The notes: generated by a model from the letters alone, not told the origin. A stretch of 64,000 nucleotides of DNA from Escherichia coli (GCF_024700885.2 NZ_CP117014.1); one strand, 5' to 3'. Positions 43 through 40,312 are shown, counted from the first letter of the stretch. Translations and numbers: made by a program.

Positions 43-287
43 AGTGTAGTGACTCCTTGCTTTCGGAGCCGCCATCGACTGTTCCACGGTCTGGTGGCGG
101 CGCAATAAAGGCTGGAACACCGTGAGTCAACGGGGGCTTTTCAGCCACCTATATTGCACCGCCATAGGTATGACGGCGGCAATAATACGAAAAACTAAAC
201 AGTTTGTCTCAAAAAGTTGACCGGTGTGCCAATCGGTAGTGAATGTACATCGGAGAAATTTACAATTCAACTTAAAATGTTAGAAAA

Positions 288-866
288 CTAATTTATCGAT
301 TCAATCGCCATCTGATACAACGTCATTTCATCGGCATTGTGCCGTATGAAATCTGCTTTTCCGCCTATTTTTCCATCAGCATGAACAGGGACCAGCCAGG
401 GATATTGTTCTCGGACCTCGGCTGGCGCTGCGTACTGGTGGTGCCATTTACACAAAGGGAGGACATATTTATGCGCGTTCTCTGCCGTTCTCCCGAAGAT
501 ATGGTGCAGGGATACCACTGGGCTATGTTGCCCGTGAATATGGCAGGCAATGCAGGGGAGAGTACCTATAGCGGTCTGTATCCGGCGTTCATCGGCTGTG
601 AGTGATCTGCCTTTCAGGCCGCGTGACGTGCGTGTTTTTTTGGGCGGAGCGGATACAGCTTTATCTTTTCTCCGCTGTTCATATTGCTTTGCTTTTTCAT
701 TTTTCTTTTGCCGATATTCAGGCGATGCGGCCTTTTCTCTCGCTCGCTGCTGCTGGCGTTGAGCTTGTTGAAGGCGCTTTGCCCTTTGTTCCTCTCGCCA
801 GGCCGGGTCAGCCAATTTTTGCATGGCTTTTTGTCTCTGTTTCTCCCAATAACTCTGTTTCTGCAT
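288..866 (-). CDS. ref: Ref-like HNH endonuclease (recombination enhancement function)
   Basis: 192 aa; Cys/His motifs LPCIACHIHG, SLHHIFGRT, PLCKWHH, APAEVREQYPWLVPVHADG match my recollection of P1 Ref. Confidence 0.65.
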   Translation of the reverse strand: MQKQSYWEKQRQKAMQKLADPAWREEQRAKRLQQAQRQQQRAREKAASPEYRQKKNEKAKQYEQRRKDKAVSAPPKKTRTSRGLKGRSLTADERRIQTAIGTLPCIACHIHGQHSPVVSLHHIFGRTAENAHKYVLPLCKWHHQYAAPAEVREQYPWLVPVHADGKIGGKADFIRHNADEMTLYQMAIESIN

Positions 867-936
867 GATGGCAGTCTCTTACTTTTCAACGATTTTTCTA
901 TGATTGATCAAAACGGTTAGATATTCAAAATTGATT

Positions 937-944
937 TTCTAACA
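937..944 (+). promoter_or_regulatory. Operator-like motif TTCTAACA in the ref promoter region
   Basis: Lies within GTTAGA-N-ATTGATTTT-CTAACAC about 70 bp upstream of the ref start; same motif recurs at about 12 other promoters. Confidence 0.45.
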
Positions 945-1138
945 CAAAACATTAATATCATCACTGATAAATGTTTGGAGGACATGATGCTTATAGCTTT
1001 AAGTGCGATCCACCAGCCATCTGTGAATGAGATTGGCCTGTTCTATGTGTTGTTTTTCGGGGCGTTGGCGCTACTTGAGCTTGGTATTGAGCTTTTCGCA
1101 GTGCTTATGTTTTGCGTCACGATTTTGGGGAAATTTTG

Positions 1139-1750
1139 ATGGTGAAACGTGTTTTGAAAATTTACATCGCGGGGCCGATGACTGGTTATCCAGATTACAA
1201 CCGTGCTGCGTTTAATGCGAAAGCGAGCGAGCTGATGGCTGAAGGGCATATCGTTCTGAATCCAGCTGTGTTACCTGGTGGCCTTTGTCAGAGTGAATAC
1301 ATGGATATTTGCCTGGCAATGGTGCGTTCTGCTGATGCGATCTACTTGCTCAATCGATGGGAGGAATCGATTGGTGCTCGTGCAGAGCACGCGCTGGCTG
1401 AAAAGCTGGGGCTGACTGTAATTTATGAGTCACCAACCAACATTGAATGCCAGGTTGCTCCGCATATTTACCGGGAACTGGTCAATGCACTGCGTGATAT
1501 CGCTGCTGTATATCACGGCACAGAACAGCTTCGTGAGCGTTTAGCCCATACCATTTCCTATTACCTGTCTTTATCTCATGAGCACAAGCTCCGCCAGAAG
1601 GTAATGATCAAATTTATCATGAGGTTATCGAAATCCCTGGCAAACGCCGATCCAAAGAATCCATTACCGAAAGAGGCAATGAATTACCTGAAGTCCTGCA
1701 ACGTTGTTTCTGAAGATGGCGTTCTTTTGGTTAGAAGGAGTTCTGCGTGA
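1139..1750 (+). CDS. DUF4406-like (nucleoside 2-deoxyribosyltransferase-fold) protein with a C-terminal module shared with the 8866-10386 protein
   Basis: KIYIAGPMTGYPDYNRAAF...VLNPA motif; C-terminal PHIYRELVNALRDIA..GTEQLRERL recurs as PHVYRELVNRLHDTA..GTQQLRERI. ATG at 1139 chosen over the upstream alternative start at 1112. Confidence 0.5.
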   Translation: MVKRVLKIYIAGPMTGYPDYNRAAFNAKASELMAEGHIVLNPAVLPGGLCQSEYMDICLAMVRSADAIYLLNRWEESIGARAEHALAEKLGLTVIYESPTNIECQVAPHIYRELVNALRDIAAVYHGTEQLRERLAHTISYYLSLSHEHKLRQKVMIKFIMRLSKSLANADPKNPLPKEAMNYLKSCNVVSEDGVLLVRRSSA

Positions 1751-1779
1751 GCTGGCGGGGATGGGGAAGGGCAGAAATC

Positions 1780-3610: not shown

Positions 3611-3767
3611 CCCAGGCTCTGCATGAAGTGAATTTATATAGCCGTATTGATGGTTCTGGCTATAGAAACTAGACACGGGCGCGGTTTTTAGCGGAAATCT
3701 GACGCTAATGCAGGTGAAGGGAGGGCAGCTTAAAGTCTGATCAAATCATTTACGCACTCAAAATCAC

Positions 3768-3796
3768 GTTAGAACATTGATTTTAGTTTTCTAACA
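3768..3796 (+). promoter_or_regulatory. Operator-like inverted repeat GTTAGAA-N14-TTCTAAC overlapping a putative promoter
   Basis: Perfect 7-bp inverted half-sites 45 bp upstream of the 3839 start; contains the recurrent TTCTAACA motif. Confidence 0.45.
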
Positions 3797-3838
3797 TATT
3801 ATTTTACCGATCGGAACAAAACAGAGTCGGTATGCATT

Positions 3839-4847: not shown

Positions 4848-5141
4848 ATGAGTCAAGGTAATGGTGACGGAGCTGCAAAGTGCAGAATCTCCACTTGTTT
4901 GATTAATGACAAAAAAATAGAACCGTGCGCGGCGTTGGCACAATCTCTGGAGAAGGATGCTGAATACACGACGCGGAAAGGTCTGCTGAAATACAAAATC
5001 TATAACCATGAATTAATTCATTCACAAGACCTGATCATGCTGCGGTCTGGTGAATTTTCTAAATCGCCTATTCGAGTTTCATTTTGCCCATTCTGTGGTG
5101 AAAGTCTGAAAACGTGGGAAGCGGAGGCAACCAGTGAATAA
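4848..5141 (+). CDS. Small Cys-rich protein with C-terminal zinc-ribbon-like CPFCGE
   Basis: ORF with ATG and RBS; CxxC pairs. Confidence 0.35.
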   Translation: MSQGNGDGAAKCRISTCLINDKKIEPCAALAQSLEKDAEYTTRKGLLKYKIYNHELIHSQDLIMLRSGEFSKSPIRVSFCPFCGESLKTWEAEATSE

Positions 5142-5778
5142 CCGCTTTTACATGATGTGCTTGCGTGAAACTGTGGGTAATAACGCCTCATTCCATTGCC
5201 ATAACGGCAATGGTTACAGTTCTGATATCGATCGCGCTCATATTTACACGCTGGAAGAAGCCCAAAAAGCCTGGAATTGTGGGCGAGATATCGATCAGCC
5301 TGTTTGTGCCGATAGTGTGGATGCAATGGCTGTGTGGCACGTTGATTGCCAGTACATCCCTACAGAAAGCCTGATTGAGTCAGATTGCACTGAGTATGTG
5401 GCCTACAAAAAAGGTAGCTGGAACGGCAACGATGTTTACTGGCTTCAACACGGTGGATTGCCAACAGATGACTTCAGTAAAGCGACCATCTTTAGCTTCG
5501 CCAACAAAAACGAACCAGGAATAGTTTGGTTGCCATTTTCCATTGCTGATGCAGCAAAGCGCCGGACGTTCAATATCAATAACTTTAACCGCAGAACAAT
5601 GGTTCAGGGCGCAGGTTTGGTCATGCCTGACTGGTTGAAAGAGCAGAACAGAAGAAAGAAGTCGCGAAGCGGGAAGGTGCGTTGGAATTGTCCGCATTGC
5701 GGAAAAATAACCTGGCAGTACAGCCCATATGATTTTGAAGGCTGTCGTGATTACAACTGTGAAGGATGGCGAGAATGA
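5134..5778 (+). CDS. Hypothetical protein with C-terminal zinc-ribbon-like motif
   Basis: 214-aa ORF; WNCPHCGK...CEGW near the C-terminus; start uncertain (GTG 5134 or ATG 5152). Confidence 0.35.
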   Translation: MNNRFYMMCLRETVGNNASFHCHNGNGYSSDIDRAHIYTLEEAQKAWNCGRDIDQPVCADSVDAMAVWHVDCQYIPTESLIESDCTEYVAYKKGSWNGNDVYWLQHGGLPTDDFSKATIFSFANKNEPGIVWLPFSIADAAKRRTFNINNFNRRTMVQGAGLVMPDWLKEQNRRKKSRSGKVRWNCPHCGKITWQYSPYDFEGCRDYNCEGWRE

Positions 5779-6488
5779 CAATTGACTATCAGGTACTGCG
5801 TGAGGCGGCAGAAAAGGCAACACCAGACGAATGGGTCGCATTTATTTCGACGGATACTGGTACTTATGCGGTGCACACGCCCGGTGATGAACGATGTGAA
5901 GACGTTATCAAATGGACCGGCTTTGATGGACAGAAAAATGCAGAGAACAACGCTCGTTATGTTGCCGCGTTCAACCCAAAGGTTGCACTGGAGCTTCTTG
6001 GTGAAATTAAGCGCCTGGAGGACACAAATATTGATGCTATGTGTCGAATTGCAGAGCTTGAGACTAATCTCGCGGCGCTGGCGGCGGAGAATGAACTGGC
6101 TCGTAAGGCAGTTCAGGCATTCTGCGATGTTGTTGGCGACAACACCGAGGTTATCGCTGAGGAGGTTGGGCGAGATGGCGTTCTGGTTATTTTGGAGGCC
6201 ATGAAGGCAACAGGAAATATGCCAGCCACCGATGCTTTTCTGGCTGAAATTCGTGCGGAAGCACGCAACGAGGGAGTTAACTATACCGCCAGCCGTCTTG
6301 CTGCTGCGTTCAATCACGGATTTATCAATAAGTCTTTGCGTGAAGTTTTCGACGTTACACGCATGATTTTGTCAGCGAAAGAAGAGTTGGCTAATGAAGC
6401 GCATCCGATTGATGGCCTGTCTGGTGAATATGCGGAGAAATCCCTTGAAGAATGGGCGGAACAGATTCGCAAAGGAGCTGACAAGTGA
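5775..6488 (+). CDS. Ead/Ea22-like protein (paralog of 7423-8178 N-terminus and 2054-2557 C-terminus)
   Basis: N-terminal MTIDYQVLREAAEKAT...AAFNPKVALELL matches 7423 ORF (MSKINYQALREAAEKAT...AAFNPKVALALL); LAALAAENE coiled coil. Confidence 0.5.
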   Translation: MTIDYQVLREAAEKATPDEWVAFISTDTGTYAVHTPGDERCEDVIKWTGFDGQKNAENNARYVAAFNPKVALELLGEIKRLEDTNIDAMCRIAELETNLAALAAENELARKAVQAFCDVVGDNTEVIAEEVGRDGVLVILEAMKATGNMPATDAFLAEIRAEARNEGVNYTASRLAAAFNHGFINKSLREVFDVTRMILSAKEELANEAHPIDGLSGEYAEKSLEEWAEQIRKGADK

Positions 6489-6895
6489 AGAAGATGATTT
6501 TTATCGCGGCATTGTTGGTGAATATCCAACAAGTGCATGCTTCAGCAGCTATTGTAGCCTCTACCGCCGCGACTACGGCTGCTGTAGCTGCTGCGAACTC
6601 TGCGAATATCGCAAACCAACAGGCACAGCGTGCTGCTAATGCATCAGCCAGCGTTCACTCAATCACCATTAAGAGCAGTAAGCAAAATCTGGGATTCATA
6701 ACGTGCGGCACGCGTTCTAATGAAGCTGTAGGTTCACTTGGATGTACGGTATATGGGGGTAGTGAGAATAGAGAAATTCCATGGAAAACGTGGCCCGGAT
6801 ACGTTCTTGGCTCGAAGCTCCCGGCCAGTTATGAAGTAAACGCCGTATCGTTTGATCACTATAACGGCGTGGCAACGGTCTATTTTGCATATTGA
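6485..6895 (+). CDS. Small secreted/periplasmic protein (signal peptide)
   Basis: N-terminal MKKMIFIAALLVNIQQVHA followed by an Ala/Thr-rich region; no lipobox cysteine. Confidence 0.4.
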   Translation: MKKMIFIAALLVNIQQVHASAAIVASTAATTAAVAAANSANIANQQAQRAANASASVHSITIKSSKQNLGFITCGTRSNEAVGSLGCTVYGGSENREIPWKTWPGYVLGSKLPASYEVNAVSFDHYNGVATVYFAY

Positions 6896-6902
6896 GGCCC
6901 GC

Positions 6903-7436
6903 ATGAAATTCTCCAAATTTTCTGAGTTGGTGAATCGTATTTTGTTGAATCGTATTTTGTCCAACAACCACAGCCATCGTCGCGATATGGATGTAACGAT
7001 CGTTGTTCATTCGCCTGGCAGCATTGGTTCAACACCCTCAGTTGAGGTTCAGTCAATTCACGCTGGTTTTGATTGGGATTCCGGGAAAGTGCTGATTTTC
7101 CCAGCACAGCCACTGACCACTCTAACACCAGAACAGATTACTGATATTACTGATAGTGTGCGCAAAGGTCAGTCCTGGCACGCATATCAGGAATACAAGA
7201 AGCATAAAGAGCAGTTGGAAAAATTATCGATTGAACTTGATACCGCAAAACAGCGCATTGCAGAGCTGGAGAGCAATCGCGCGGCGCTGGCGGCGGAGCA
7301 TGGTATTCAGATTGCAATAAATGAACTGCTTGCTCTGGCCCCGCGTCTGGATAAACGAGCGGTGGATGCACTCTCTGTGGCTGTGGAGCACCTGTGTAAA
7401 CTGATTAAGAAGGAGGCAGTCAGTGAGCAAAATTAA
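6903..7436 (+). CDS. Ead/Ea22-like coiled-coil protein
   Basis: ELESNRAALAAEHG motif; ATG at 6903 with RBS chosen over the upstream alternative start. Confidence 0.4.
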   Translation: MKFSKFSELVNRILLNRILSNNHSHRRDMDVTIVVHSPGSIGSTPSVEVQSIHAGFDWDSGKVLIFPAQPLTTLTPEQITDITDSVRKGQSWHAYQEYKKHKEQLEKLSIELDTAKQRIAELESNRAALAAEHGIQIAINELLALAPRLDKRAVDALSVAVEHLCKLIKKEAVSEQN

Positions 7437-8178
7437 TTACCAGGCACTGCGTGAGGCGGCAGAGAAAGCAACGTGGGGAGACTGGGACTCATATAAACCA
7501 CACCGTGGCGCACGTGGTTATAAGGTCCGACTAAGTGGTCAGGCCATTGCGCAACACGTTCTGAAAAACAACGCTGAATTTATTGCTGCCTTTAATCCAA
7601 AGGTTGCTTTGGCATTACTGGATGAACTGGAAAGAAACCAGCAATACATCAAACGCCGCGACCAGAAGAACGAGGATATTGCTCTTACGGTTGGGAAGCT
7701 GAGAGTTGAGCTTGAGGAAGTAAAACAACACGCTGAAGAATTATCCGAAACCAAGGCTGTTCGTAACCAATGGCGGCCAGATATTTGCCCAATAACCGGA
7801 CGTGCATTTTTCATGTGGATTGAGCATCCAACATTGGGAAATGTGCCGACATATGGTGGCCCATTAGATAGTTACACCATTCCAACAAAGGACGGTGACG
7901 GTGAGTTTTCATGTGAGCGTTACGATCATGATTTTGGCGGTTGGGTAGAAAGCGAATGTCTTGGGTTATATCTGATTGATGATAGAGAACAATGCAGGGT
8001 CTACGAACTGGAGGAGCGCGTTAAGGAACTGGATGCTCGGGAAATATCGCTCCCGGAACGTAGCAGCATGCTTCATCGAACAGATTTTCACGATGATTAC
8101 CAAACGGTAATGGCATACAAAGTTTCTGAAGTCATCGATGCAATCCGCGCTACTGGCATTCGCATCAAAGGAGAGTGA
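7423..8178 (+). CDS. Ead/Ea22-like protein
   Basis: GTG start with RBS AAGGAGG; N-terminal paralogy to 5775-6488. Confidence 0.45.
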   Translation: MSKINYQALREAAEKATWGDWDSYKPHRGARGYKVRLSGQAIAQHVLKNNAEFIAAFNPKVALALLDELERNQQYIKRRDQKNEDIALTVGKLRVELEEVKQHAEELSETKAVRNQWRPDICPITGRAFFMWIEHPTLGNVPTYGGPLDSYTIPTKDGDGEFSCERYDHDFGGWVESECLGLYLIDDREQCRVYELEERVKELDAREISLPERSSMLHRTDFHDDYQTVMAYKVSEVIDAIRATGIRIKGE

Positions 8179-8179
8179 G

Positions 8180-8590
8180 ATGAACGCTATAACCAAAGAA
8201 CGTATCAAATTATTCATTAAAAATCCGCTTGATAACGGACTTACTCGTGGCGAACAAATGGAACTGGCACGAATTGCTCTGGCATCGCTGGAAGCAGAGG
8301 CAGTTATGTTCTGTATATCAGGACAAAATGTAGATTCAGAAGAACATGTATCAACCAGCAAAGCGGTTGTTGATGCCTGGGTTGAAGAATGGAATCAGGT
8401 TGACGGAAGTCCTGGCGAACCACTGTACAAAACTATGCCACTCTACTATCACGCTGCCTTGCCAGCGCCGGTAGTGCCGGATGAAATGTATTGGCAGGAT
8501 GCGCCAGTTGAAGGCAGCAGCAAAGCGGCTGCATACGCTACAGGCTGGAACGCCTGCCGCGCCGCTATGCTTCATGGGAAAGGAGAGTGA
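8180..8590 (+). CDS. Hypothetical protein, N-terminal paralog of the 8866-10386 protein
   Basis: First 40 aa (MNAITKERIKLFIKNPLDNGLTRGEQMELARIALASLEA) nearly identical to 8866 ORF; about 90% DNA identity over roughly 120 bp. Confidence 0.45.
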   Translation: MNAITKERIKLFIKNPLDNGLTRGEQMELARIALASLEAEAVMFCISGQNVDSEEHVSTSKAVVDAWVEEWNQVDGSPGEPLYKTMPLYYHAALPAPVVPDEMYWQDAPVEGSSKAAAYATGWNACRAAMLHGKGE

Positions 8591-8591
8591 T

Positions 8592-8855
8592 ATGGCAACT
8601 TTAACAAAAAAAGAACGGGCATGGTTGAACGAATTACAGGACGTTCTTGATCGCTGTCCATCACCGAAAAAAATTGGTTTTTACACCATTGGCGATAAAA
8701 GCATTTACCTGTATGACCTGCGCCGCATGGATGAAATCATGGAGACTCTTGATAATCGTTCGTCGATGGATTGGTGTGTTGCTGTTCATGATATGAATGC
8801 AGGGTTTGATGAAAAGATTTTGTTCCCCTCATCAGTTGAAAGCACTGCGGGTTAA
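8592..8855 (+). CDS. Hypothetical small protein
   Basis: ORF starting MATLTKKERAWLNEL at an ATG directly after the previous stop. Confidence 0.35.
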   Translation: MATLTKKERAWLNELQDVLDRCPSPKKIGFYTIGDKSIYLYDLRRMDEIMETLDNRSSMDWCVAVHDMNAGFDEKILFPSSVESTAG

Positions 8856-8865
8856 GGAGTAACAC

Positions 8866-10386
8866 ATGACCACTATTACCAAAGAACGTATTGAATTGTT
8901 CATTAAAAATCCGCTTGAAAACGGGCTTACCCGTGGTGAACAAATGGAACTGGCACGGATTGCGCTGGCATCGCTGGAAGCAGATCCAGTTAAACGAGTT
9001 AACTCAGATCAGATGCGCCGAGTCTGCTTAGAAGCTAATCGCCATTTAGATAAATATGACGCGATGGCGAAAGAGGTAAATAAGTTGCTTGGACGCATCG
9101 CCCCGCCAGCGCCGGTAGTGCCGGAAGAAGCAACTCCGGAAAACGTAGAAATGCTCTCTGGCTATGTTTCCACGTACAAATTAACCGATAGCGAGCGCGA
9201 TATTGCTGCCGAAATATGGAACGCCTGCCGCACCGCCATGCTTCAGTCCGGAAACTTTCGGGAAAGCAAGAATTCGTCAACCAATAATTTTCGGGAAATC
9301 GCGGAAACGTCAACCAACTATCCGGTAATTCCTAGTGAGGTGTTGTCAGCAATCCTGAAGTTTGCCAGAGTTCGTGCCGATTTCGATGATTTTGACGGTG
9401 ACAGGCGAGGTATCGGTGATTGTCTGGATGAGGCCGAGCAAGAGCTTATCGTTACCATTAACAAATATGCCAGTCAGTTGGCAGCAGAACCGATAGCGAC
9501 TAATGACGTTCGAGAGCAAACAGCCGTTCCGCCAATACAGGCTGATGTCGCGCAAGCAATTGAAAATCTCAAGCAGAAGTTAGTGGAATGCAATCGCTAT
9601 AACTACTGCGCAGATGCAGTTAAAGGCGTAGAGGATGCCAGCCGCGTCTTGGCACTCCAAAATCAAAATATGTCAGCACCGGTAACGCCGGAGGCCATTG
9701 AAAACGCAATTGAATATATCCGCAGTATCGCTTTTCACATCGATGAAGACGATTACCACGGCAAGCATATTGCGTATTTCATGCGACAAGCATTGGCCTG
9801 GCTGGAAGGGCATTCATGCAGCGACGACAGGCTGGGTAAGGCCGACAATCAACCCGCATCTGGTAACCAGTCTGCCGAATCCAATCGCGGTAATGAGTGG
9901 ACCGGCAATCCTGATATTGATAACGCCATCATCATGCTCGACCGCATAGATACGGCGGAAAGTTGCGATGATGACCGTATTGAGGCCGTTAAGGCTGTGT
10001 TGCGTAGACTGGCAGGCAACTATCCGGATATTCCGGATAGTTCGGTGCCAGCGCCAGGAAAGGGCGTCACCGGTGAACGTATCCGCATTAAGCCGCATGT
10101 TTATCGCGAACTGGTTAACCGTCTCCACGATACAGCGATCAAGTGTGCTGGCACCCAGCAATTACGAGAAAGAATTAGCCGTGTTTTGGGCGACGTTATT
10201 ACACCAGATCATCATAAACAAGCCGAGAAAAGTGGCCTGGAAAGGTGTCGCCTTGAGGCGGCATTAAACATTAAGCCGGGGCATACGCTTGGCATTATTG
10301 ATGCACTATTGGTTCATAAGATGGCCAGGGCTTTATTGCCGCTGGTGGCTGAAAAGCATGAGGTGGACCATGCCAACGAAAGCTGA
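8866..10386 (+). CDS. Hypothetical 506-aa modular protein
   Basis: N-terminal module shared with 8180 ORF; C-terminal PHVYRELVNRLHDTAIKCAGTQQLRERI module shared with 1139-1750 protein; RBS AAGGAG. Confidence 0.45.
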   Translation: MTTITKERIELFIKNPLENGLTRGEQMELARIALASLEADPVKRVNSDQMRRVCLEANRHLDKYDAMAKEVNKLLGRIAPPAPVVPEEATPENVEMLSGYVSTYKLTDSERDIAAEIWNACRTAMLQSGNFRESKNSSTNNFREIAETSTNYPVIPSEVLSAILKFARVRADFDDFDGDRRGIGDCLDEAEQELIVTINKYASQLAAEPIATNDVREQTAVPPIQADVAQAIENLKQKLVECNRYNYCADAVKGVEDASRVLALQNQNMSAPVTPEAIENAIEYIRSIAFHIDEDDYHGKHIAYFMRQALAWLEGHSCSDDRLGKADNQPASGNQSAESNRGNEWTGNPDIDNAIIMLDRIDTAESCDDDRIEAVKAVLRRLAGNYPDIPDSSVPAPGKGVTGERIRIKPHVYRELVNRLHDTAIKCAGTQQLRERISRVLGDVITPDHHKQAEKSGLERCRLEAALNIKPGHTLGIIDALLVHKMARALLPLVAEKHEVDHANES

Positions 10387-10654
10387 ATTACAGGTGCGCG
10401 TAGATGAGCTTGAAAAAGAGAACGCGAGCCTCAAAAAAATGCTGTCGCGGGCGGAAAGGGAATTATCAGGCAAATTATTGCCAGAAGAACTGCCACCAGC
10501 AGATATACCTGATCGAGTGTCCTGGTGGATGAAGTATTTCCGTGCACCGTGGGAGGCGTTTTGGTGCTACGACCATCGCAGATGGTGTGATGAGCTTGAT
10601 AGCAGTTTCCCCTATTTTGCAGAAGGGAACTCTTGCCCTGAATGTAGGCGTTAA
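10370..10654 (+). CDS. Small Cys-motif protein (tandem paralog 1)
   Basis: Ends WCYDHRRWCDELDSSFPYFAEGNSCPECRR; paralogous to next ORF. Confidence 0.4.
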   Translation: MPTKAELQVRVDELEKENASLKKMLSRAERELSGKLLPEELPPADIPDRVSWWMKYFRAPWEAFWCYDHRRWCDELDSSFPYFAEGNSCPECRR

Positions 10655-10959
10655 TGATGACCGGCGAGCTTTATTTTAAAATGGCACGGGAGCGGCGTGT
10701 GCATCTGGATCGGATATTTCATCTCCAGAAGAGAGTAGAAGAACTGGAACGTCGTCTGAACTGTTATCCTGTTGATATGGTGTCTGCAATACCGCCGATT
10801 CCAATAGAAATGCAGATCCGCCTATGGATGGAAGAATATGGAATGCCGTGGGAGATATTTTTCTGCTTCGACCATAAACAGTGGGTAGATGAGCTGGATA
10901 ATAGTTTCCCATATTTCACAGAGAACACATGCCCAGTATGCAGGAAGAACGGAATATGA
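10654..10959 (+). CDS. Small Cys-motif protein (tandem paralog 2)
   Basis: Ends FCFDHKQWVDELDNSFPYFTENTCPVCRK. Confidence 0.4.
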   Translation: MMTGELYFKMARERRVHLDRIFHLQKRVEELERRLNCYPVDMVSAIPPIPIEMQIRLWMEEYGMPWEIFFCFDHKQWVDELDNSFPYFTENTCPVCRKNGI

Positions 10960-11480
10960 CAAAATTTGGAAAGCTGGAAGCTCATTTGCTAACTCGCAAC
11001 TACCGCCATGATATACACCCATATAGACAGTGGATCGATGAAAGCGAAGGAGTAGTTACATTCCCTCTCTACAGGTTTGATGGGATGTTGGCTGGGTATC
11101 AGACATATAGACCAGGTGCACCTAAGCAGCATAGCAATCCGAAGATGGCCCGGTATTTCACGCGATCACACGGCAGACAGTTACTTTGGGGAACCTATCT
11201 TCCTTTAAAAGATGGCCCAATATGGATAACTGAGTCTATTTTTAAGAGCGCAGCTGTACACAACGCGGGCGGCAATTCGTGGGCGCTGTTAGGTTCAACT
11301 TTCTCCGCAGGATTACGCCGTCAACTTGCGATGCTGCCGTATGACTTTCGCGTAATAGGTGACAATGATGCGGCTGGTGAATCACTTGTGAAGTCTTTCG
11401 GAAAAGGTTTTGTGGCCCCGGATCTTGACGAGCTACAACCACATGAAGTGTCTCATTTGATTTTTAGCCATAGCCAATAA
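10956..11480 (+). CDS. Stand-alone Toprim-domain protein
   Basis: ESIFKSAAVHNAG ... VIGDNDAAGE resembles the Toprim conserved Glu and DxD motifs; ATGA overlap with the previous stop. Confidence 0.45.
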   Translation: MTKFGKLEAHLLTRNYRHDIHPYRQWIDESEGVVTFPLYRFDGMLAGYQTYRPGAPKQHSNPKMARYFTRSHGRQLLWGTYLPLKDGPIWITESIFKSAAVHNAGGNSWALLGSTFSAGLRRQLAMLPYDFRVIGDNDAAGESLVKSFGKGFVAPDLDELQPHEVSHLIFSHSQ

Positions 11481-11690
11481 GCATCTCTCCCCTTTGAGGT
11501 CACAATTAGTGGCCTTAAACAATGTGTTTTCTACCTCGATTTAGCCTTTATTATCGTTTTGCATTTCTCTAATCCGGGCAACGAGGTTACGCTGATTCGT
11601 TGGTGATGAATAGTAGCAAAGCGCACAAAATCATCTGCGGTGGTTGATGTACGTAACGCGTTTGCACCAAATGTGTCTCTTTAATGTATA

Positions 11691-11706
11691 CTGTATAAAT
11701 GAACAG
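11691..11706 (+). promoter_or_regulatory. LexA (SOS) box upstream of humD
   Basis: CTGTATAAATGAACAG fits CTGT-N8-ACAG, 22 bp upstream of the humD ATG. Confidence 0.6.
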
Positions 11707-11727
11707 TATTATTGAGGTGAAAACGCT

Positions 11728-12117
11728 ATGGGCTTCCCTTCTCCTGCGGCGGACTATGTTGAAAGCCGAATTTCTCTTGATCAGCAACTAATCAGGCATC
11801 CATCAGCGACATACTTCATGCGGGCGGCAGACAGCCATCACCGTGAGGGAATATTGCAGGGTGCTTTGCTGGTGGTTGATTCTTCGCTTACTCCAGTTGA
11901 TGGTTCGCTGCTTGTGTGCGCTATGGAGGGAGAATATCGCGTAAAAAGATACCGGAAGTATCCGCGCCAGCACCTGGAGGATTTAAGCACCGGGAAGAAA
12001 GAGGCGTTACCAGTAGATGACGATGGTTACACGGGTAGTAATGCTGTTTTTGGTGTGATCACCCACATTATCAATGACGCCAGGGGCGGTGAATTTGATG
12101 ATAGTCCTGCTATATGA
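11728..12117 (+). CDS. humD: HumD (UmuD-prime homolog, S24 peptidase-like)
   Basis: 129 aa starting MGFPSPAADYVE; P1 synteny humD-phd-doc; LexA box upstream. Confidence 0.65.
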   Translation: MGFPSPAADYVESRISLDQQLIRHPSATYFMRAADSHHREGILQGALLVVDSSLTPVDGSLLVCAMEGEYRVKRYRKYPRQHLEDLSTGKKEALPVDDDGYTGSNAVFGVITHIINDARGGEFDDSPAI

Positions 12118-13004: not shown

Positions 13005-13384
13005 TGAGGCATATATCACCGGAAGAACTTATTGCGCTTCATGATGCGAATATAAGCCGCTACGGCGGCCTGCCGGGAATGTCAGATCCGGGTAGGGCAG
13101 AGGCCATTATCGGGAGAGTTCAGGCCAGAGTTGCCTACGAAGAGATCACCGACCTTTTCGAAGTCTCCGCCACCTACCTGGTGGCTACGGCGAGAGGGCA
13201 TATATTCAATGATGCCAATAAGCGTACCGCGCTAAACAGTGCGCTGCTATTTCTACGCCGTAACGGTATACAGGTATATGATGATCCCGTGCTGGTGGAG
13301 CTTGCAGTGGGGGCTGCAACTGGTGAAATCCCCGTATCTTCAGTAGCGAAAAAACTACGTGAACTATATGGTTCCAATATTTGA
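13004..13384 (+). CDS. doc: Doc toxin (Fic-fold kinase)
   Basis: 126 aa with [10 protein letters not shown] Fic-type motif; near-identical to recalled P1 Doc; ATGA overlap with phd. Confidence 0.85.
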
Positions 13385-13385
13385 A

Positions 13386-13415
13386 AAGAAGCCCGCTCAA
13401 CCAGGCGGGCTTCTT
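13386..13415. terminator. Bidirectional rho-independent terminator between convergent doc and 13420 gene
   Basis: AAGAA-GCCCGC-tcaaccag-GCGGGC-TTCTT hairpin with flanking A/T runs. Confidence 0.55.
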
Positions 13416-13419
13416 ACTA

Positions 13420-14514
13420 TCACTCAATGATTTTTTCTGCTGTCAGCCAGCTAATTTCTTGCCTGTCTTTCGGCGGTTTTAGCATGTGGGCGTATTCAGC
13501 GACATTCTCCCACGGAATTGTTTTTGCCCACTCAACGATAGCATTGTGATCTGCAGTGAAGAGTGGAATGGTGTGCGATTTCAACCATTCTAATGTCGTG
13601 ACGCCATGTTTTTTGGCGTGGTGCTGCGCATGATGCCGGGCTATCACTCGTAATGGTATTGTCCATTCACTACCATCAGGCATCGAAAAGCGCATTGTCT
13701 TCGGCATATCTGATTCAAGAACAGCCTCCCTAATACCAGGGAACTCACCAAGAATCATACGACGATAGTCATCACTATTTCGCCCGCCATACCTTTCGGC
13801 AAAATGATCAAGATATTCTTGGGTAATAAATGGTGAATCCTCCGCACTCAGCTTAATGGCTTTATATACACCACTCGGATTATCTTCAGCTAAAGCACGT
13901 CCATGATGTGAATCATAAAAAAAGCCTATTTCCTCTGGTGACGGAATTGAAGTGAGCAATATGCGTGAATCACCACTAGTCATGCTTGCCCACACAATGC
14001 TGTATGCCCGATCGCTGATATGTGCGGAATCCACAATAATGAATAAAAGATGGTCGGCGTAGTGACCTGCAATGCTATCTTCATAGTTAAGGCGGAAGTT
14101 ACAAAAGCACATTCCCCAAAATTCATTGAACATCAGACCGCTATCACCGACCTTAAAATACTCAATGATAAAAGGTTGTTTTTTCAGCAATGCCTCCCAA
14201 CATTGCCACACATATGCAACAATTCCTCTTTTGCAAACATTTGATTTTGGATAAACAATTACTGTCCGGGAATCAGGATACATAATCGTATAAAGGGTAC
14301 TAATAACAGCAAGCACTTGCGGTCGTCCGATCCCATACGGAGTGGTGACAGTAGCTTTTGCATTATTGGGCTGTATAGCTTCAACAATTTGTTGTTGCTG
14401 GTGGCTTAAATCAATATCAAACAATTCTTTTGCTGCCAGTACCCAATTGTCTTTATATTTCTCCACCAGCGACAGCCAGCGCGGATCTTTATAAATATTG
14501 CTCTTAGTCGCCAT
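13420..14514 (-). CDS. Terminase large-subunit (PacB) paralog with degenerate Walker A/B motifs
   Basis: Aligns with PacB (19603-21111): DPRW, SHQQQQI, FYDSHH, SPF, EYGGR shared; Walker A GHGTGKS replaced by PYGIGRP, Walker B ILDEAS by IVDSAH; divergent shorter C-terminus. Start set at MATKSNIYKD (ATG 14514). Confidence 0.6.
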   Translation of the reverse strand: MATKSNIYKDPRWLSLVEKYKDNWVLAAKELFDIDLSHQQQQIVEAIQPNNAKATVTTPYGIGRPQVLAVISTLYTIMYPDSRTVIVYPKSNVCKRGIVAYVWQCWEALLKKQPFIIEYFKVGDSGLMFNEFWGMCFCNFRLNYEDSIAGHYADHLLFIIVDSAHISDRAYSIVWASMTSGDSRILLTSIPSPEEIGFFYDSHHGRALAEDNPSGVYKAIKLSAEDSPFITQEYLDHFAERYGGRNSDDYRRMILGEFPGIREAVLESDMPKTMRFSMPDGSEWTIPLRVIARHHAQHHAKKHGVTTLEWLKSHTIPLFTADHNAIVEWAKTIPWENVAEYAHMLKPPKDRQEISWLTAEKIIE

Positions 14515-17041: not shown

Positions 17042-17098
17042 AGCACCCTCCTAAATAGGCGAGGGTACTTTACAGCAAAGGCGTTAATCTAAAAAGAT

Positions 17099-22864: not shown

Positions 22865-22972
22865 TAATCCCCCGGGCAGGAAATGACCGAGGGGATGATA
22901 ATGAGAATGTTAAAACTGTATAGACTGGTAAAAAGATGAATGTATTAGAAAATTAATACTAAATATCTAATG

Positions 22973-23365
22973 CTACCAGCTAGACAAACGAACAACATGT
23001 TTCACTTTTGCGATCCACTGTCCGCGATAACTATTGATTACGGCCTGTGCCAGCTTCAAATTGGCTTCAAAATCAGCCTTACTACCATCAGACTCCACCA
23101 GCATTCCTCCATCTATTTCTGGTAAACATAGATAATCCTGCTCAACCTGCAGCGGCATTGATGGCTCTCTGAATGGGGTTACTTGCTCTGCTTTCCAGCG
23201 AAATCTAACCCTTATCCCCCTGGTGGTCATTACTAGATAGCCTGTTATAGTGCTTTTATGGCCCACATCAGTACGCGTGGCATTGCATGACTCGATCTTA
23301 CAGTTAGCGATAGACCACTCCATATTGGTGGCCTGTTGAGTGCTTAATTTGGTAGTCCCGTACAT
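22973..23365 (-). CDS. Hypothetical 130-aa protein
   Basis: ORF coupled with the upstream 191-aa gene. Confidence 0.3.
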   Translation of the reverse strand: MYGTTKLSTQQATNMEWSIANCKIESCNATRTDVGHKSTITGYLVMTTRGIRVRFRWKAEQVTPFREPSMPLQVEQDYLCLPEIDGGMLVESDGSKADFEANLKLAQAVINSYRGQWIAKVKHVVRLSSW

Positions 23366-25514: not shown

Positions 25515-25518
25515 AATT

Positions 25519-25605: not shown

Positions 25606-25610
25606 TAAAT

Positions 25611-26270: not shown

Positions 26271-26756
26271 ATGCGGCACTCTCTCCGCCCGTCACCGCTC
26301 TGTCTCGGTTGTCGCGTTTGCCACGCCAGCCGTAACGAGGTTTAAAGTCTTTACACGTTTCCATCACTCGACTGCCGTCTGTGGCTGTTCGTTGCAGCGG
26401 GGGTGCCTCCCCCTGGGGATATCCCCGGCCTTACCCCATTCTTTCAAGACACAATGCAAGGCCACATCCGCATAGGTGCATTACCGCAACATTAAGGAGA
26501 CTCAGGGCAAAAGGTAACCGCCACAAAAATCCCTATGCCTCCTTAATGTTGAAGATGTGCATTGATGATTAGATGCAGCATGTACCGTTACTCTCTGCCG
26601 GACCATCATCAATGAACACCTTAAAAAGACCTTCCGTGGCTCAACATGTATTGTCGTTTACTCCGCAAAGTGCTCTCTCTGAAACCACTTTCCGCACTAA
26701 ACCTGCTGAACTTTGGCCTGCACGGTGCCAAAGCGTGCTCTTGCATTACTATACAT

Positions 26757-26920
26757 TTCTAACACTTTAATTTGTTAAATGCTGGTGGGCGAACAATAAC
26801 CAATAAGTGACTATCAAGCCCAGCAAGCGAAACGTGGGTACCGCCCACCAGCAAGGAAAATTCTATGTTAAGTTATCTTCACAATCAATACATTCGAATT
26901 GTGATTTTAGATTTCTAACA
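26757..26920. promoter_or_regulatory. Two operator-like motifs flanking an 11-bp perfect inverted repeat
   Basis: TTCTAACA at 26757-26764 and 26913-26920; GCTGGTGGGCG ... CGCCCACCAGC between them. Confidence 0.35.
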
Positions 26921-26922
26921 CA

Positions 26923-28131: not shown

Positions 28132-28212
28132 TGCTATTCCCGTTACTTTGTTAAATTATTTTTCTAACATATTTTATTAGTTTGATGACAGTATCGAAAG
28201 ATGCAATAAACA

Positions 28213-28755: not shown

Positions 28756-29250
28756 TTAATCAAGACAAACATACTCCGTGATAGCTTTTATGGCTTCAGC
28801 GGCACTGCGCGCCTCAAAGCAGTAGTAACCGGCTTCTGTGAGGCGAGTCATCCAGACGAGTTGTTCGGGAGTCAGGCGATTTCTCCCATGTTTCATCTCA
28901 ATGCGCATTCCGTGGTATCCCCCACAAGCAAGGTCTATAGAAAGATCGGGATATCCCTTCTTTTGGCCCTCTGCCACCATTTTTATTGCCGTCCTTATGC
29001 CTCGCAGGCCACCGTTTGGAGTGGCGTGAGTATGCTCATACACATAACGCATATTGCGATACATCCAGTCCAGGACGCGAACCTGCTCGTAATGCTCATG
29101 GTTCCTTTTGATTAGATCTGGGTTTTTCTCCAGTTCTCTAAGAGCTGCGGCATGTGGGGATGTTTCAGAATATTCACTGCGACGCCTTCTCTTTCGCGCT
29201 ATTTTTCTAACACACCCATTGATAGTAAATATGCGAAATAATAACAACAA
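28756..29250 (-). CDS. VRR-NUC domain nuclease (PD-(D/E)xK fold); true start probably internal
   Basis: GYPDLSIDLACGGYHGMRIEMKHG...LTPEQLVWMTRLTEAG fits the VRR-NUC pattern; operator-like motif at 29205-29212 lies inside the longest ORF, so the real start is likely Met63/Met67 (about 29064). Confidence 0.55.
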   Translation of the reverse strand: MLLLFRIFTINGCVRKIARKRRRRSEYSETSPHAAALRELEKNPDLIKRNHEHYEQVRVLDWMYRNMRYVYEHTHATPNGGLRGIRTAIKMVAEGQKKGYPDLSIDLACGGYHGMRIEMKHGRNRLTPEQLVWMTRLTEAGYYCFEARSAAEAIKAITEYVCLD

Positions 29251-29386
29251 CGTTAGATTTGTAAAACAAGAGAGATACTACTCAAGGATGGTCTATATGC
29301 AACAGGTCGGATTTGCTTTTAGAGTAAAGAGTGACCTTAATCAACAAGGAGGGTAAATCGCATGGCATTTACCCAACCTGTTATTT

Positions 29387-36957: not shown

Positions 36958-37108
36958 AGGATTTCCCCCTCTAAACCGTAAAAAATTCCGCTATGCGGTA
37001 CGGTTGAGAGGGTATGGAGAATGTTATTTTCAGGGGGACGATACTACCGTCAAAATCACATACTCCCCATAGTTTGCCTACTTATTAACCCATGACCGGG
37101 AGAAAAAT

Positions 37109-37823: not shown

Positions 37824-38531
37824 TCACTCACCTCCCCAACCGATCACCTGGAATTGCCCCATTTTGGGGTGATACCAGCGTTTTCCTCGGTGTTCAGCCT
37901 CCGACATCATCCGGTTAAAAGCATTCATGAAGGGAGATAAGGCCACGATGGAACGACGCGACAATACCCCCTCTGGAGTCAAAAACTCATGTGTATCGGT
38001 GGGAATCCGGTAAGCGTTGACAAGGTTTCGGCATTTGGCTTCAGTCAGGCCGCATTTCGCCGCCAGCTGGCGGTAGCCAATGTAGCCTTCCGGAATATTG
38101 CCTTTCTTTATTTGCTCGACGGTTTCAGCGACCTGGCTAACCTTTGACTCAACAGCATGAATCAGCTTTTGCTGCTGAACTGCATTCGCAGCCATTGCAG
38201 CGATCATCTCTATTTCGGTCAACGGCTGGCGTACTTGTTCTTCCAGTTCGCGCCAGCGGTCCACCAGCCGGGCGGTGAATTCGGGAGAGAGCTGCGCGAC
38301 GACAATGATGCTGTCTCGTTTGCCTTGCTCGCCTTCGAAGACGTAAGCCTCAACGCCACGACGCAATCCTAAGTTATTGATTTTTTCGAAAACAGCCATT
38401 GGCGGTTTTCGGATAATGCTTCGAGCAACCATACGCTCAATACTACGTTTAACGTCAGAGTGTTGGCTTCCCACCAGCTCCGCAATCTCAATGCTGGTCA
38501 TTGATAGTTTTTCGAGAATGCAGATACCCAT
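37824..38531 (-). CDS. Rha-family phage regulatory protein
   Basis: N-terminal MTSIEIAELVGSQHSDVKRSIERM resembles the Rha domain. Confidence 0.45.
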   Translation of the reverse strand: MGICILEKLSMTSIEIAELVGSQHSDVKRSIERMVARSIIRKPPMAVFEKINNLGLRRGVEAYVFEGEQGKRDSIIVVAQLSPEFTARLVDRWRELEEQVRQPLTEIEMIAAMAANAVQQQKLIHAVESKVSQVAETVEQIKKGNIPEGYIGYRQLAAKCGLTEAKCRNLVNAYRIPTDTHEFLTPEGVLSRRSIVALSPFMNAFNRMMSEAEHRGKRWYHPKMGQFQVIGWGGE

Positions 38532-38755
38532 CAGTGTGCCTCCGCAATTCCGGGATTGGTAATATTGCGATACCAGGGATTAGTGTTTGGTTGTGGGGAA
38601 GTAGAGAAACGACCAGTAAGAACACCATGCTGATCAGGGATCAGAGAACGGGCTTCTTTTTCGGTTGCGGCAATTGCGAAGTGATCGCAGCGTTTTTGCA
38701 GGGAGTGGAAACGCCAGATGAATTCTGGACGTGAGCAAGGATTGGCATTAACCAT
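38531..38755 (-). CDS. Hypothetical 74-aa protein
   Basis: ORF coupled to Rha-like gene. Confidence 0.3.
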   Translation of the reverse strand: MVNANPCSRPEFIWRFHSLQKRCDHFAIAATEKEARSLIPDQHGVLTGRFSTSPQPNTNPWYRNITNPGIAEAH

Positions 38756-39168
38756 AGTTACGGCCTCACTAACAGGTTTAACAACCTGCCACCCGCTGTC
38801 AAACAGGTGGCAGGACGTGACAGGGTTGACAGACTGGCGTTAGTGAAACCAGCAGGCCGAAGCCTCCCCATCACGCCCCACCATAATTCGGGCGTAACGC
38901 GGTTTACGGACACAAAAATACCGCAATATCGGAAATCTGCGGTTGTCCGCACTAACATTCAGGCTGTCAAACCCGGTCGCAGAATTTGCTACGACGGCAT
39001 GAATATAAGCCTGAAAACATGGAAGATCAACTAAAAATTTCAGCAATGGATGACTTCAGTCGATGATGCAGATCATACATTCCGTTTTAGAAACAGCAAA
39101 TTAATTTTCTAACATAAATAATCGGCCGAGCATTTTCCGATCATTGGGATGTTTTGTAGACACACAGG

Positions 39169-40131
39169 TCATCCCCTAAATCCCGCAGGGATTGACCAAT
39201 CCTCACGGTCAAATTCAGACCGATAGCCACGCTGTTTCATCAGGTCAAAGGCTTCACCAATGGTTGCACACCCCTGGGAGCCAGAATAATCCATTGAGAA
39301 ATCTAGGGCACTGGATTGTTTAGGCTTATTCACTGCGGTAGCGGCACTACGTATCCATGCAAATTTTTTTGCCAGCTTTTCAGCGGTACGATACAGAGCC
39401 TGCCGTTTTGCGTGCCCCTCGTCTGAACGACGCTTTGCAGCTCTCGCTTTTGCCGCCGCCAGGCAGTGGTTGGTATGTTCTTCCCTGATTACTGGTTTTT
39501 TATCCAGTACCCCGTTATCCGTTTGAGAACTATCTGCAGGTGAAGCCTTTGGCTGAACCGCGCATGATCTTTCTCTTCTTTTGGCTATAGAGTGACTCTT
39601 ATTTTCTATTGGCTGTTCATTTTGAACATGGGGGGACTTGTTCAATTTGAACAGGGGGTTCCCAGTTTCAAAAAAATAACGAACCTTTGAAATCAACTGC
39701 TTAACCAGTTTTGTGGCGTTGGCAAATTTGATGCCCTGCTTACCCCCTATCTCCATTGCTACATGAATGAAGTGGAGAAATTGTGTCGTAAACCGATATA
39801 CGTTACACACCTGGGCATTGTTATTCGCTACCTGATGTTGCTTAACAAGCATTCCGCACTTCGTCGCTTCAGCAAATGCCCGGCGCACAGTAGAAATACT
39901 GCGTCCTGTAATCTCGGACATATCAGCATATGAGCGACGGATCATGTATTCATCGGTAGACCCTGCCAGGTTGGCGAACTCGGCAATAATGGCGCTATGT
40001 GAAGGGGAAAGAAGACCGCTATGACGAGCAAAAAAACTCAACTGATGACCTTTGATTTTTTTGTGGTATTCAGTGTTGTTTTTATACTCAGAAGTGTTGA
40101 AAGTTACTGAAACTGAATTTAAAATACTCAC
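39169..40131 (-). CDS. Putative replication initiator (RepL-like) with internal palindromic repeats
   Basis: HTH-like MSEITGRSISTVRRAFAEATKCGML; two tandem palindromes inside the coding sequence; operator-like motif upstream. Confidence 0.4.
   Translation of the reverse strand: MSILNSVSVTFNTSEYKNNTEYHKKIKGHQLSFFARHSGLLSPSHSAIIAEFANLAGSTDEYMIRRSYADMSEITGRSISTVRRAFAEATKCGMLVKQHQVANNNAQVCNVYRFTTQFLHFIHVAMEIGGKQGIKFANATKLVKQLISKVRYFFETGNPLFKLNKSPHVQNEQPIENKSHSIAKRRERSCAVQPKASPADSSQTDNGVLDKKPVIREEHTNHCLAAAKARAAKRRSDEGHAKRQALYRTAEKLAKKFAWIRSAATAVNKPKQSSALDFSMDYSGSQGCATIGEAFDLMKQRGYRSEFDREDWSIPAGFRG
39614..39657. repeat. Two tandem palindromic sites TGTTCA-N3-TGAACA inside the RepL-like gene (candidate internal origin)
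   Basis: TGTTCATTTTGAACATGGGGGG and TGTTCAATTTGAACAGGGGG about 24 bp apart. Confidence 0.4.
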
Positions 40132-40304
40132 CAGATAGTTCCGTGAAAAAATCTATCTACCGTATAAATCTATGGCAGTGGATTTATACACCCAAAAAGC
40201 CGCTTCTCAGCGGCTTTTGCTTTTTTGGCAGTCGCTACCGGAGCAGTGACCGCGATCCTACTCGATCCCATCCACCAGGATCAACAGTGTATATAAATAC
40301 ACTA

Positions 40305-40312
40305 TGTTAGAA
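40305..40312 (-). promoter_or_regulatory. Operator-like motif upstream of the RepL-like operon
   Basis: TGTTAGAA about 175 bp upstream of the 40131 start. Confidence 0.35.

Follow-up and report, generated by a model that had tools for sequence, protein, structure and literature searches.

The closest described systems are the C1 immunity repressors of phages P1 and P7, which act at many dispersed operators of 17-19 bp, monovalent as well as bivalent, and the asymmetry of the P1 operator is an oddity long known. The lambdoid CI repressors likewise control their own gene and the lytic functions, while their operators are palindromes clustered at one or two control regions. The stretch of Escherichia coli DNA analysed here (64,000 nucleotides, hereafter the window) is a D6-like plasmid prophage related to P1, of a kind frequently found in E. 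coli, Salmonella and also Shigella; it is 98-99.7% identical to D6 (MF356679, AY753669) across c1-pac-lpa, and differs from it in several mosaic segments and in the tRNA set. Our results revealed a short motif scattered over this element, which from its sequence and its positions is very probably the operator recognised by a D6-type C1 immunity repressor, the product of 18538-19575. As a whole it appears to be a heteroimmune C1 regulon, namely a system of known kind whose recognition sequence is new. No operator is annotated in MF356679 or AY753669; the motif may be described in Gilcrease & Casjens 2018 (genome) or Sauer & McDermott 2004 (immC).

Exact copies of the core TTCTAACA, on either strand, number 11 in the window (starts at 278, 937, 3789, 17100, 18510, 26757, 26913, 28162, 29205, 39107 and 40305), against 2.06 +/- 1.43 expected and a maximum of 6 in dinucleotide shuffles. 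It is embedded in an asymmetric 19-bp motif, AAwTTAnwTTTCTAACAyA, and a weight matrix built on this motif finds 13 sites of at least 15 bits, herein called strong, where 0.05 would be expected (Table 1). A first-pass annotation had listed about 13 copies of the core with coordinates that prove correct within 1-2 bases; 11 of them are exact, and the other two (22941-22959 and 18420-18438) are one-mismatch variants, while the thirteenth strong site, at 29250-29268, was absent from its list. Its proposal that the copies are almost always intergenic holds for 12 of the 13 strong sites, the exception being 29196-29214, which falls within the 5' part of pmgM as annotated, with an uncertain TTG start. 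An ORF set made greedy on purpose leaves 9.2% of the window non-coding, and ten of the 13 lie in that fraction (P = 1e-8). All 13 are present in D6, and of the 16 or so sites in that complete annotated genome 15 fall in its 10.2% non-coding DNA (P = 2e-14).

Table 1. Putative C1 operators and the candidate repressor gene in the window
Feature	Position	Strand	Score or remark
Operator AAATTAGTTTTCTAACATT	276..294	-	27.7 bits
Bivalent operator, ref (-) / orf88 operon (+)	913..946	.	P1 equivalent Oref
ref/orf88, strong site	928-946	+	26.5 bits
ref/orf88, weak inverted partner	913-931	-	6.4 bits
Bivalent operator upstream of pdcB (3839)	3765..3798	.	Conserved in D6 and Shigella plasmid
pdcB, strong site	3780-3798	+	27.7 bits
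pdcB, partner site	3765-3783	-	8.1 bits
Operator directly after dre stop codon	17098..17116	-	28.7 bits
Weak second site upstream of c1, core TTTTCTAAAA	18420..18438	+	Only 8.2 bits
Strong c1 operator, 12 bp upstream of start codon	18508..18526	-	27.5 bits
c1, candidate repressor, 345 aa	18538..19575	+	99.7% identical to D6 C1
Operator upstream of lpa (late-promoter activator gene)	22941..22974	.	P1 equivalent Olpa
lpa site, one-mismatch core TTCTAATA	22941-22959	-	20.3 bits
lpa, weak partner	22956-22974	+	5.7 bits
Operator in non-coding region upstream of leftward tRNA cluster	26748..26766	+	20.3 bits
Operator right after pmgS stop codon, upstream of leftward tRNA unit	26904..26922	+	26.8 bits
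Operator 22 bp upstream of pmgS ATG	28153..28171	+	28.6 bits
Operator within first 55 nt of annotated pmgM ORF	29196..29214	+	21.3 bits
Weaker site, core TTGTAAAACA	29250..29268	+	15.1 bits
Operator heading immI operon	39098..39116	+	29.5 bits
Operator 172 bp upstream of repL (lytic replication gene)	40303..40321	-	27.7 bits

The candidate repressor put forward by the first-pass annotation is indeed the protein encoded by D6 c1, remotely homologous to P1 C1. It shares 21% identity with the P1 protein over 268 collinear residues (BLASTP, E 1e-8), its C terminus extending 62 aa further; its match to NCBIfam NF041318 phage_rep_C1 (E 6e-6) reaches 25.9 bits where the cut-off is 500, and therefore it is a remote relative and not an equivalog. 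No Pfam hit was obtained even at E <=10, and no solved structure was found for it. A lambdoid helix-turn-helix repressor class was rejected, as the protein has neither such a domain nor any Pfam domain, and as the D6-type operators are asymmetric and genome-scattered. The gene order is dre - rox - c1 - pacB - pacA - lpa, so that c1 stands between a Cre-type recombinase site and pacB as it does in P1, and 148 PLSDB plasmids carry a D6-type c1 or a relative. The position between dre and c1 where coi, the antirepressor gene, would lie has no ORF of at least 50 aa. The co-repressor Lxc is reported as undetected in D6-like elements (PMC6799933), and the control circuit may therefore differ from that of P1.

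The positions of the sites closely follow those of P1. The P1 counterparts in the window are Oref, Omat, Ossb, Oc4, OrepL, Obanab, O26, OpmgR, OpmgT, Olpa and Oc1, and in D6 a counterpart of Odmt is also present outside the window; the gene set is the same as in P1, namely ref, c4-icd-ant, repL, lpa, c1, pmgR/S, pmgL/M, tRNA/ban, the isaA operon and dmt-hrdC. At ref, lpa, repL and the c1 position, named as targets by the first-pass annotation, the sites lie where the P1 record annotates C1 operators, and the same is true for units that it did not name, i.e. pmgR/S, pmgL/M, the ban-tRNA operon and ssb-isaA, as well as for the pdcB-pmgU operon. Its reading as an immunity-repressor regulon is therefore supported for this P1 relative, with binding by C1 as the probable basis. 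The late structural region of the window, from 40.3 to 64 kb, contains no motif site, and the late operons bear a different conserved box without a C1-type motif site. The suggestion that no late structural gene is targeted thus stands, yet pmgS and pmgM are among the putative targets and are called 'morphogenetic', as in P1.

At the left end, the site at 276-294 overlaps the ref stop codon (288), as P1 Omat does, and faces a leftward operon, orf86-orf85-isrK/c4-icd2-ant2, which is a second c4-icd-ant-like unit lying mostly beyond the left end of the window. Its D6 counterpart is at 75978-75996 and is followed downstream by a second C4 RNA; differently from P1, the D6-type element has two immI-like loci, each behind an operator. 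The ref promoter site is the one at 937, and the one at 278 sits at the 3' end of ref instead. The ref/orf88 operator is overlapped by a sigma-70-like -35 TTGATT and -10 TAATAT, and in the Shigella plasmid both of its halves are strong (25.7 and 23.7 bits), while the pdcB operator occupies the spacer between the hexamers of a predicted promoter, TTGATT-17-TATTTT. The site after dre lies 57 bp upstream of the orf117-orf116-dut-orf114-isaA operon, and isaA is controlled via Ossb in P1. Upstream of c1, the weak site carries the one-mismatch variant TTCTAAAA, and the strong one is located just downstream of a conserved promoter-like TTTACT-17-TAAATT and probably autoregulates c1.

In the right half of the listed sites, the one at 26748-26766 is the equivalent of P1 Obanab, which heads the tRNA-tci-ban operon, the tRNA cluster here being at 24393-25687 on the minus strand; the neighbouring site at 26904-26922 has a predicted minus-strand promoter, TTGATT-17-TAGAAT, 16 bp downstream. 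The site before pmgS abuts a predicted -10 TAAAAT and has its equivalents in OpmgRa/b, which control pmgR-pmgS in P1. At pmgM, a promoter match of 10/12 (TTTACA-16-TATTAT) lies upstream of the site at 29196-29214, while the site at 29250-29268, with a D6 copy at 11412-11430, overlaps the -35 predicted for pmgM and is the equivalent of P1 O26 upstream of pmgL-pmgM. The immI operator abuts a -35 and is followed by the a1/b1 targets (38956-39008), the C4 antisense RNA (38803-38888) and then icd and ant, with Rfam matches to C4 and c4-a1b1 just downstream; the alignment of this Oc4 region with P1 is base for base, both operators falling on the same 17 bp. The repL operator, equivalent to P1 OrepL, is kept in the Shigella plasmid. 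In general the sites overlap or abut predicted sigma-70 promoters; these predictions are weak, with 8-10 of 12 consensus positions matched, and none was obtained for the 17098 site.

Moreover, the operators of the two phages are alike in their core. The P1 consensus ATTGCTCTAATAAATTT contains CTCTAATA, which bears out the resemblance suggested in the first-pass annotation, and TCTAA is common to four immunity types. Within 3 mismatches ATTGCTCTAATAAATTT has no match in the window, and no D6-type site was found in P1; therefore the element is predicted to be heteroimmune to P1. An inverted weaker partner accompanies five sites in one fixed geometry far above chance frequency, with the cores 21 bp apart and facing outward, whereas the P1 Obanab cores are 13 bp apart and face inward. 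The register between D6 and P1 operators is ambiguous, since one orientation agrees better with the TCTAA anchor and the lpa alignment, the opposite one with the Oc4 alignment and the bivalent geometry.

The motif is conserved in relatives according to their C1. In the Shigella plasmid, the C1 of which is 69.5% identical, the 9-bp core is 98.9%, the 19-bp site 83% and the 30-bp flanks 53% identical. Both sites upstream of c1 are invariant islands in five relatives: the strong one is unchanged over C1 identities of 69-100%, and at the weak one TTTTCTAA is invariant while the surrounding 100 bp diverge. In plasmids with C1 27-30% identical the D6 motif is absent, and other variants (TTCTAAGG, wTCTAAGG, TTCTAAAw) are carried at the same intergenic positions. 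For example in the Leclercia, Citrobacter and CP060164 plasmids, the position of 17098-17116 bears a type-specific motif and that of 26904-26922 is also occupied. The bases just after TCTAA may set the immunity specificity, being TA in P1, CA in D6, GG in Citrobacter/Leclercia and AA/AT in CP060164.

Considering that both the motif and intergenic DNA are AT-rich, the recurrence could be imagined as an artefact of composition or chance, and we regard the probability of this as practically negligible: the observed core count was never reached in the dinucleotide shuffles, the weight-matrix count is far above its expectation, the core is 99% conserved against 53% in the flanks, and the partners stand at a single fixed spacing. 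It is very unlikely, too, that the motif is a common early-promoter element, such as an unusual -10/-35 or a UP-like element, rather than a repressor site. The TAACAT in the motif does fit a -10 pattern TAnnnT, and the partner in bivalent sites offers a -35-like TTAGAA 17 bp upstream. However, about 7 sites point the same way as the downstream gene and 6 the other way, a mixture unlike a directional element, several sites follow the predicted promoter hexamers or lie between them, and the motif varies with C1 type while the host RNA polymerase is constant.

A real regulatory site might also be bound by another protein, either a different phage-encoded regulator or a host factor. In fact the covariation with C1 type would be equally expected for any protein diverging with the genome, and, since the plasmids bearing other motifs have diverged throughout, C1 is not set apart by it. 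We nevertheless consider such a binder improbable, for the sites map onto experimentally defined P1 C1 operator positions, a strong one is only 12 bp before c1, the TCTAA core is common to the motif and the P1 C1 operator, and the C1 homologue is the sole protein tied by homology to dispersed asymmetric sites.

Taking the D6-type C1 as the probable binding protein, and its binding as repressing transcription, the prophage state can be pictured as follows. C1 would occupy the strong asymmetric 19-bp sites, approximately 13 of them in the window, and at the promoters it would shut off lytic replication through repL and the late-gene activator lpa, the late structural operons being controlled only indirectly via lpa, as P1 late genes are through Lpa. 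It would likewise silence both antirepressor operons (c4-icd-ant), the ref and orf88 module, the pdcB-pmgU module, the dut-isaA and tRNA operons, and pmgS and pmgM, and repress its own gene; the five sites with inverted partners would correspond to the bivalent operators of P1. Such an operator sequence would define the early regulon of D6-like elements, place accessory modules under prophage repression and make immunity groups predictable from sequence alone. It also gives a concrete target for engineering D6-type vectors, D6 being already the source of the Dre/rox recombination tool.

As for the repressor itself, the AlphaFold models of the D6-type and P1 C1 proteins have Tus, the replication terminator of E. 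coli, as their only match, with modest TM-scores of 0.34-0.48. By sequence, C1 and Tus have no significant similarity (hhalign probability about 2%), and hmmsearch against PDB sequences found nothing. Against the Pfam Ter family (PF05472) only 2 of 103 C1 family members touch (E 0.03-0.1) and none reaches 0.001; membership in this family was rejected, given the hhalign value and the lack of a Pfam hit for the window C1. Tus acts as a monomer, at a site of about 21-23 bp that is AT-rich and asymmetric. By analogy with P1 C1 and from the predicted fold, the D6-type C1 would also bind as a monomer, and Tus-like monomeric binding would explain the asymmetric C1 operators. It differs from the Tus-Ter system in that C1 works at many sites and represses transcription, and we know of no fork-arrest role for C1; our search of the literature found no paper linking the two. 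On these models, it seems an evenly balanced question whether the C1 repressors of P1, D6 and relatives are structural, possibly evolutionary, relatives of Tus that sit as monomers on asymmetric sites with a TCTAA core. If the fold is confirmed, the way in which P1-family repressors read asymmetric sites would have its first structural explanation, and a classic phage repressor would be linked to a replication fork trap protein. If the kinship is true, the immunity groups of P1-like phage-plasmids would have a readable code, the C1-operator complexes would possibly be polar roadblocks, and Tus and C1 would possibly share a mobile-element origin.

The recurrent motif is best explained by an ImmC regulon of the P1 kind whose specificity is new, and in which binding and repression by C1, the candidate repressor encoded at 18538-19575 (+), are what we infer. 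The core TTCTAACA or its complement occurs exactly 11 times in the window, against 2.06 +/- 1.43 times in shuffled sequences with a maximum of 6; the first-pass annotation had counted about 13 occurrences, and the other two in its list are variants, namely the lpa site with TTCTAATA and the site at 18427-18444. When the sites are aligned, the core sits within an asymmetric 19-bp motif, AAwTTAnwTTTCTAACAyA, and a weight-matrix scan of the window with a threshold of 15 bits or more detected 13 sites where 0.05 are expected, which are the 11 exact cores, the lpa site and a weaker one at 29250-29268. At 18427-18444 the score is no more than 8.2 bits, but the site is accepted as real, since five relatives keep its TTTTCTAA core unchanged amid diverged surroundings. 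The motif had been described as mostly intergenic and as missing from the structural late genes, and both statements agree with the scan: 10 of the 13 sites fall in the non-coding 9.2% of the window (P = 1e-8), a fraction defined against a deliberately greedy ORF set, and there are no weight-matrix sites across the late region of 40.3-64 kb. As for the fully annotated D6 genome, 15/16 sites are intergenic with a non-coding fraction of 10.2% (P = 2e-14).

Over the c1-pac-lpa segment, Escherichia phage D6 (AY753669, MF356679), a relative of P1, shares 98.4-99.0% identity with the window, and for ~90-kb E. coli plasmids the identity to this segment rises up to 99.7%. When the D6 genes are mapped onto it, the window emerges as a D6-like plasmid prophage that is collinear and has undergone mosaic replacement in several places. 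The D6 records label c1, lpa, pacAB, dre/rox (recombinase gene and recombination site), repL, icd, ref and others as 'similar to P1', and operators are annotated in neither of them. Our literature search on D6 operators found nothing relevant, and the bare motif string retrieved unrelated primer sequences alone; the operator might already be described in the D6 genome or immC-Dre papers (Gilcrease & Casjens 2018; Sauer & McDermott 2004).

The site contexts were compared among the window, the D6 annotation and the richly annotated P1 record AF234172, and a P1 C1-operator counterpart was found for every window site, as listed in the table together with the late-operon boxes.

Predicted operator sites (by start coordinate) and late-operon boxes in the window
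Feature	Position (strand)	Context	P1 counterpart
Operator	276	overlapping ref stop codon	Omat
Operator	928	between divergent ref / orf88 promoters	Oref
Operator	3780	pdcB...pmgU operon	OpmgT
Operator	17098	3' of recombinase gene, head of dut-isaA operon	Ossb (ssb-isaA)
Operators	18508 and 18420	5' of c1	Oc1
Operator	22941	5' of lpa	Olpa
Operators	26748 and 26904	5' of leftward tRNA cluster	Obanab (tRNA-tci-ban operon)
Operator	28153	5' of pmgS	OpmgRa/b
Operators	29196 and 29250	5' of pmgM	O26
Operator	39098	immI operon head	Oc4
Operator	40303	5' of repL	OrepL
Late box	37055-37073 (+)	orf16	
Late box	43058-43076 (-)	prt	
Late box	47177-47195 (-)	ddrB	
Late box	50942-50960 (-)	lydA	
Late box	56222-56240 (-)	R	
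Late box	63685-63703 (-)	pmgB	

At the immI operon, the a1/b1 targets and a C4 RNA (Rfam) lie directly downstream of the operator, and when this region is aligned with P1, the window operator and Oc4 fall on the same 17 bp. The 276 site points, in D6, to a second isrK/C4-icd-ant locus, and therefore both antirepressor operons stand behind an operator; beyond the window, D6 has a bivalent site 5' of hrdC-dcm-dmt, equivalent to Odmt, and another 5' of orf52. The tRNA cluster is on the minus strand by both Rfam and ARAGORN, and its leader at 25.7-26.9 kb has no significant Rfam match. For pmgM (28756-29250, -), a good predicted promoter and an operator site are both downstream of the annotated TTG start, and no alternative in-frame start was found near this TTG. 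Just 3' of the repL operator, at ~40278-40302 (-), lies the palindrome GTGTATTTATATACAC and after it TGTTGATC; this stretch is kept in the Shigella plasmid and may act on the repL promoter as a further control element. The equivalent promoter in P1 carries Dam sites.

The product of 18538-19575 is 99.7% identical to D6 C1 and 21% identical to P1 C1, with which it is collinear (E 1e-8). NCBIfam phage_rep_C1 is hit at E 6e-6, far under the equivalog cut-off, and the protein has no Pfam domain and no relative with a solved structure; tblastn against a phage collection retrieves only D6, P1 missing E 1e-5. P1 C1 uses ~22 dispersed asymmetric 17-bp operators with the consensus ATTGCTCTAATAAATTT (PMC8546580). 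This consensus is absent from the window within 3 mismatches, and no D6-type site is present in P1; therefore P1 and D6 are predicted to be mutually heteroimmune. The recurrence of the motif is confirmed and the proposed C1 regulon supported: the sites are most likely the operators of a heteroimmune repressor of the C1 family.

By tblastn, 148 plasmids carry C1 relatives, which fall into identity classes of ~100, 89, 80, 68-70, 28-30 and 25%. In a Shigella plasmid with a 69.5% identical C1, TTTCTAACA is kept at 13 equivalent places, and the identity to the window is 98.9% in the 9-bp core, 83% in the 19-bp site and 53% in the 30-bp flanks. The D6 motif was not found in Leclercia and Citrobacter plasmids (C1 29-30% identical), which have 9 copies of wTCTAAGG against 0.77 expected, 8/9 of them intergenic and at positions matching the D6 sites: after the recombinase gene, before c1, ref and rdgC-dam, and after pmgS. 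At equivalent places the CP060164 plasmid (C1 27.7% identical) carries acacayAwTTCTAAAw. When anchored on TCTAA, the consensuses are ATTGCtCTAATaAaTtt for P1, A..TTA.tTTTCTAACAcA for D6, aAtTCTAAGG.tTt for Citrobacter/Leclercia and aaTTCTAAAa for CP060164, so that all four operator types have a TCTAA core. This line-up bears out the likeness to the P1 C1 operator stated in the first-pass annotation, and suggests that specificity may be set by the two bases 3' of TCTAA and the flanks. As to how P1 and D6 sites should be superposed, TCTAA anchoring leaves 9-11 of 17 positions in common and is consistent over the four immunity types, whereas the opposite orientation fits better with the local alignment at Oc4 and with the geometry of the bivalent sites. 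The right arm of rox (window 18321-18331) continues in three relatives into an operator core, GTTAGAAA, in place of which the window and D6 have GTTATAAA; the rox-adjacent core may be a third C1 site in some lineages.

Five strong sites have an inverted, weaker partner with an overlap of exactly 4 bp and cores 21 bp apart. The partners score 8.1, 6.4, 5.7, 0.3 and -0.2 bits, a score of 5 bits being reached at only 0.03% of window positions, and the partner sites at ref and pdcB are strong in the Shigella plasmid. Most sites are overlapped or abutted by sigma-70-like hexamers, which are consensus matches only (8-10 of 12 positions); none were found at the 17098 site.

C1 is predicted from structure models to have a Tus-like fold. 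The P1 C1 model (pLDDT 80) matches Tus with E 6.6e-10 and TM 0.45-0.48, the next match being at E 0.19, and the match is stronger than for the D6-type model. Profile comparisons show no significant link to Tus at the sequence level: hhalign of C1 against Tus has a probability of ~2% with both the 8-sequence and the 103-sequence profiles, and hmmsearch of the C1 profile against PDB sequences did not find Tus. Of the Pfam families, Ter alone is hit by more than one of the 103 members; its two hits (2/103) are sub-threshold, at E 0.03-0.1. The C1 family is a small one, accounting for 130 clusters out of 1.84 billion representatives, and in the literature searched no paper linking C1 and Tus was found. 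Tus binds as a monomer to the asymmetric Ter site, and P1 C1 is reportedly monomeric as well (Dreiseikelmann et al. 1988); with the predicted fold, this would help to explain why the operators are asymmetric. What merits further work is the putative four-type TCTAA 'code' together with the predicted Tus-like fold.

In the prophage state, C1 on its sites would block the early promoters, including those of repL, lpa and both antirepressor operons, and would repress its own gene; the late genes would be silent because lpa is off. The P1 late-promoter box, AAGTGACTT-N-TAnnnT, is absent from the window, and in its place the late operons orf16, prt-pro, ddrB, lydA-dar, R-S and pmgB-sit have a different common box found de novo, ATCACAhACT-N3-yAnnnT, a pattern derived post hoc from those same six regions. 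This box probably serves as the Lpa-dependent late promoter of D6-type elements.

The segments of the window with little or no nucleotide similarity to D6 (5141-9538, 10532-11728, 13384-14531, 23940-26900, 43026-45802 and 51000-55150) are mosaic replacements covering accessory genes, the tRNA region and the tail-fibre/cin region, and no operator site is gained or lost through them. The window has five tRNA genes at 24393-25687 (-), with a CAT anticodon, Ser, Thr, Tyr and Arg, and D6 has three (Ser, Thr and Asn, D6 7145-7850), which are on the plus strand in the GenBank record and on the minus strand by ARAGORN. The tail-fibre S gene (53131-55740) contains tandem repeats at ~53800-55050 (-) with a period of ~300 bp, roughly 4-5 copies in which two variants alternate; the enriched k-mers CTACTGAG and GCTCAGTA were rejected as a regulatory motif, being these repeats. 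The Chi sequence GCTGGTGG has 36 copies in the whole window against ~5 expected, and related plasmids are likewise rich in it.
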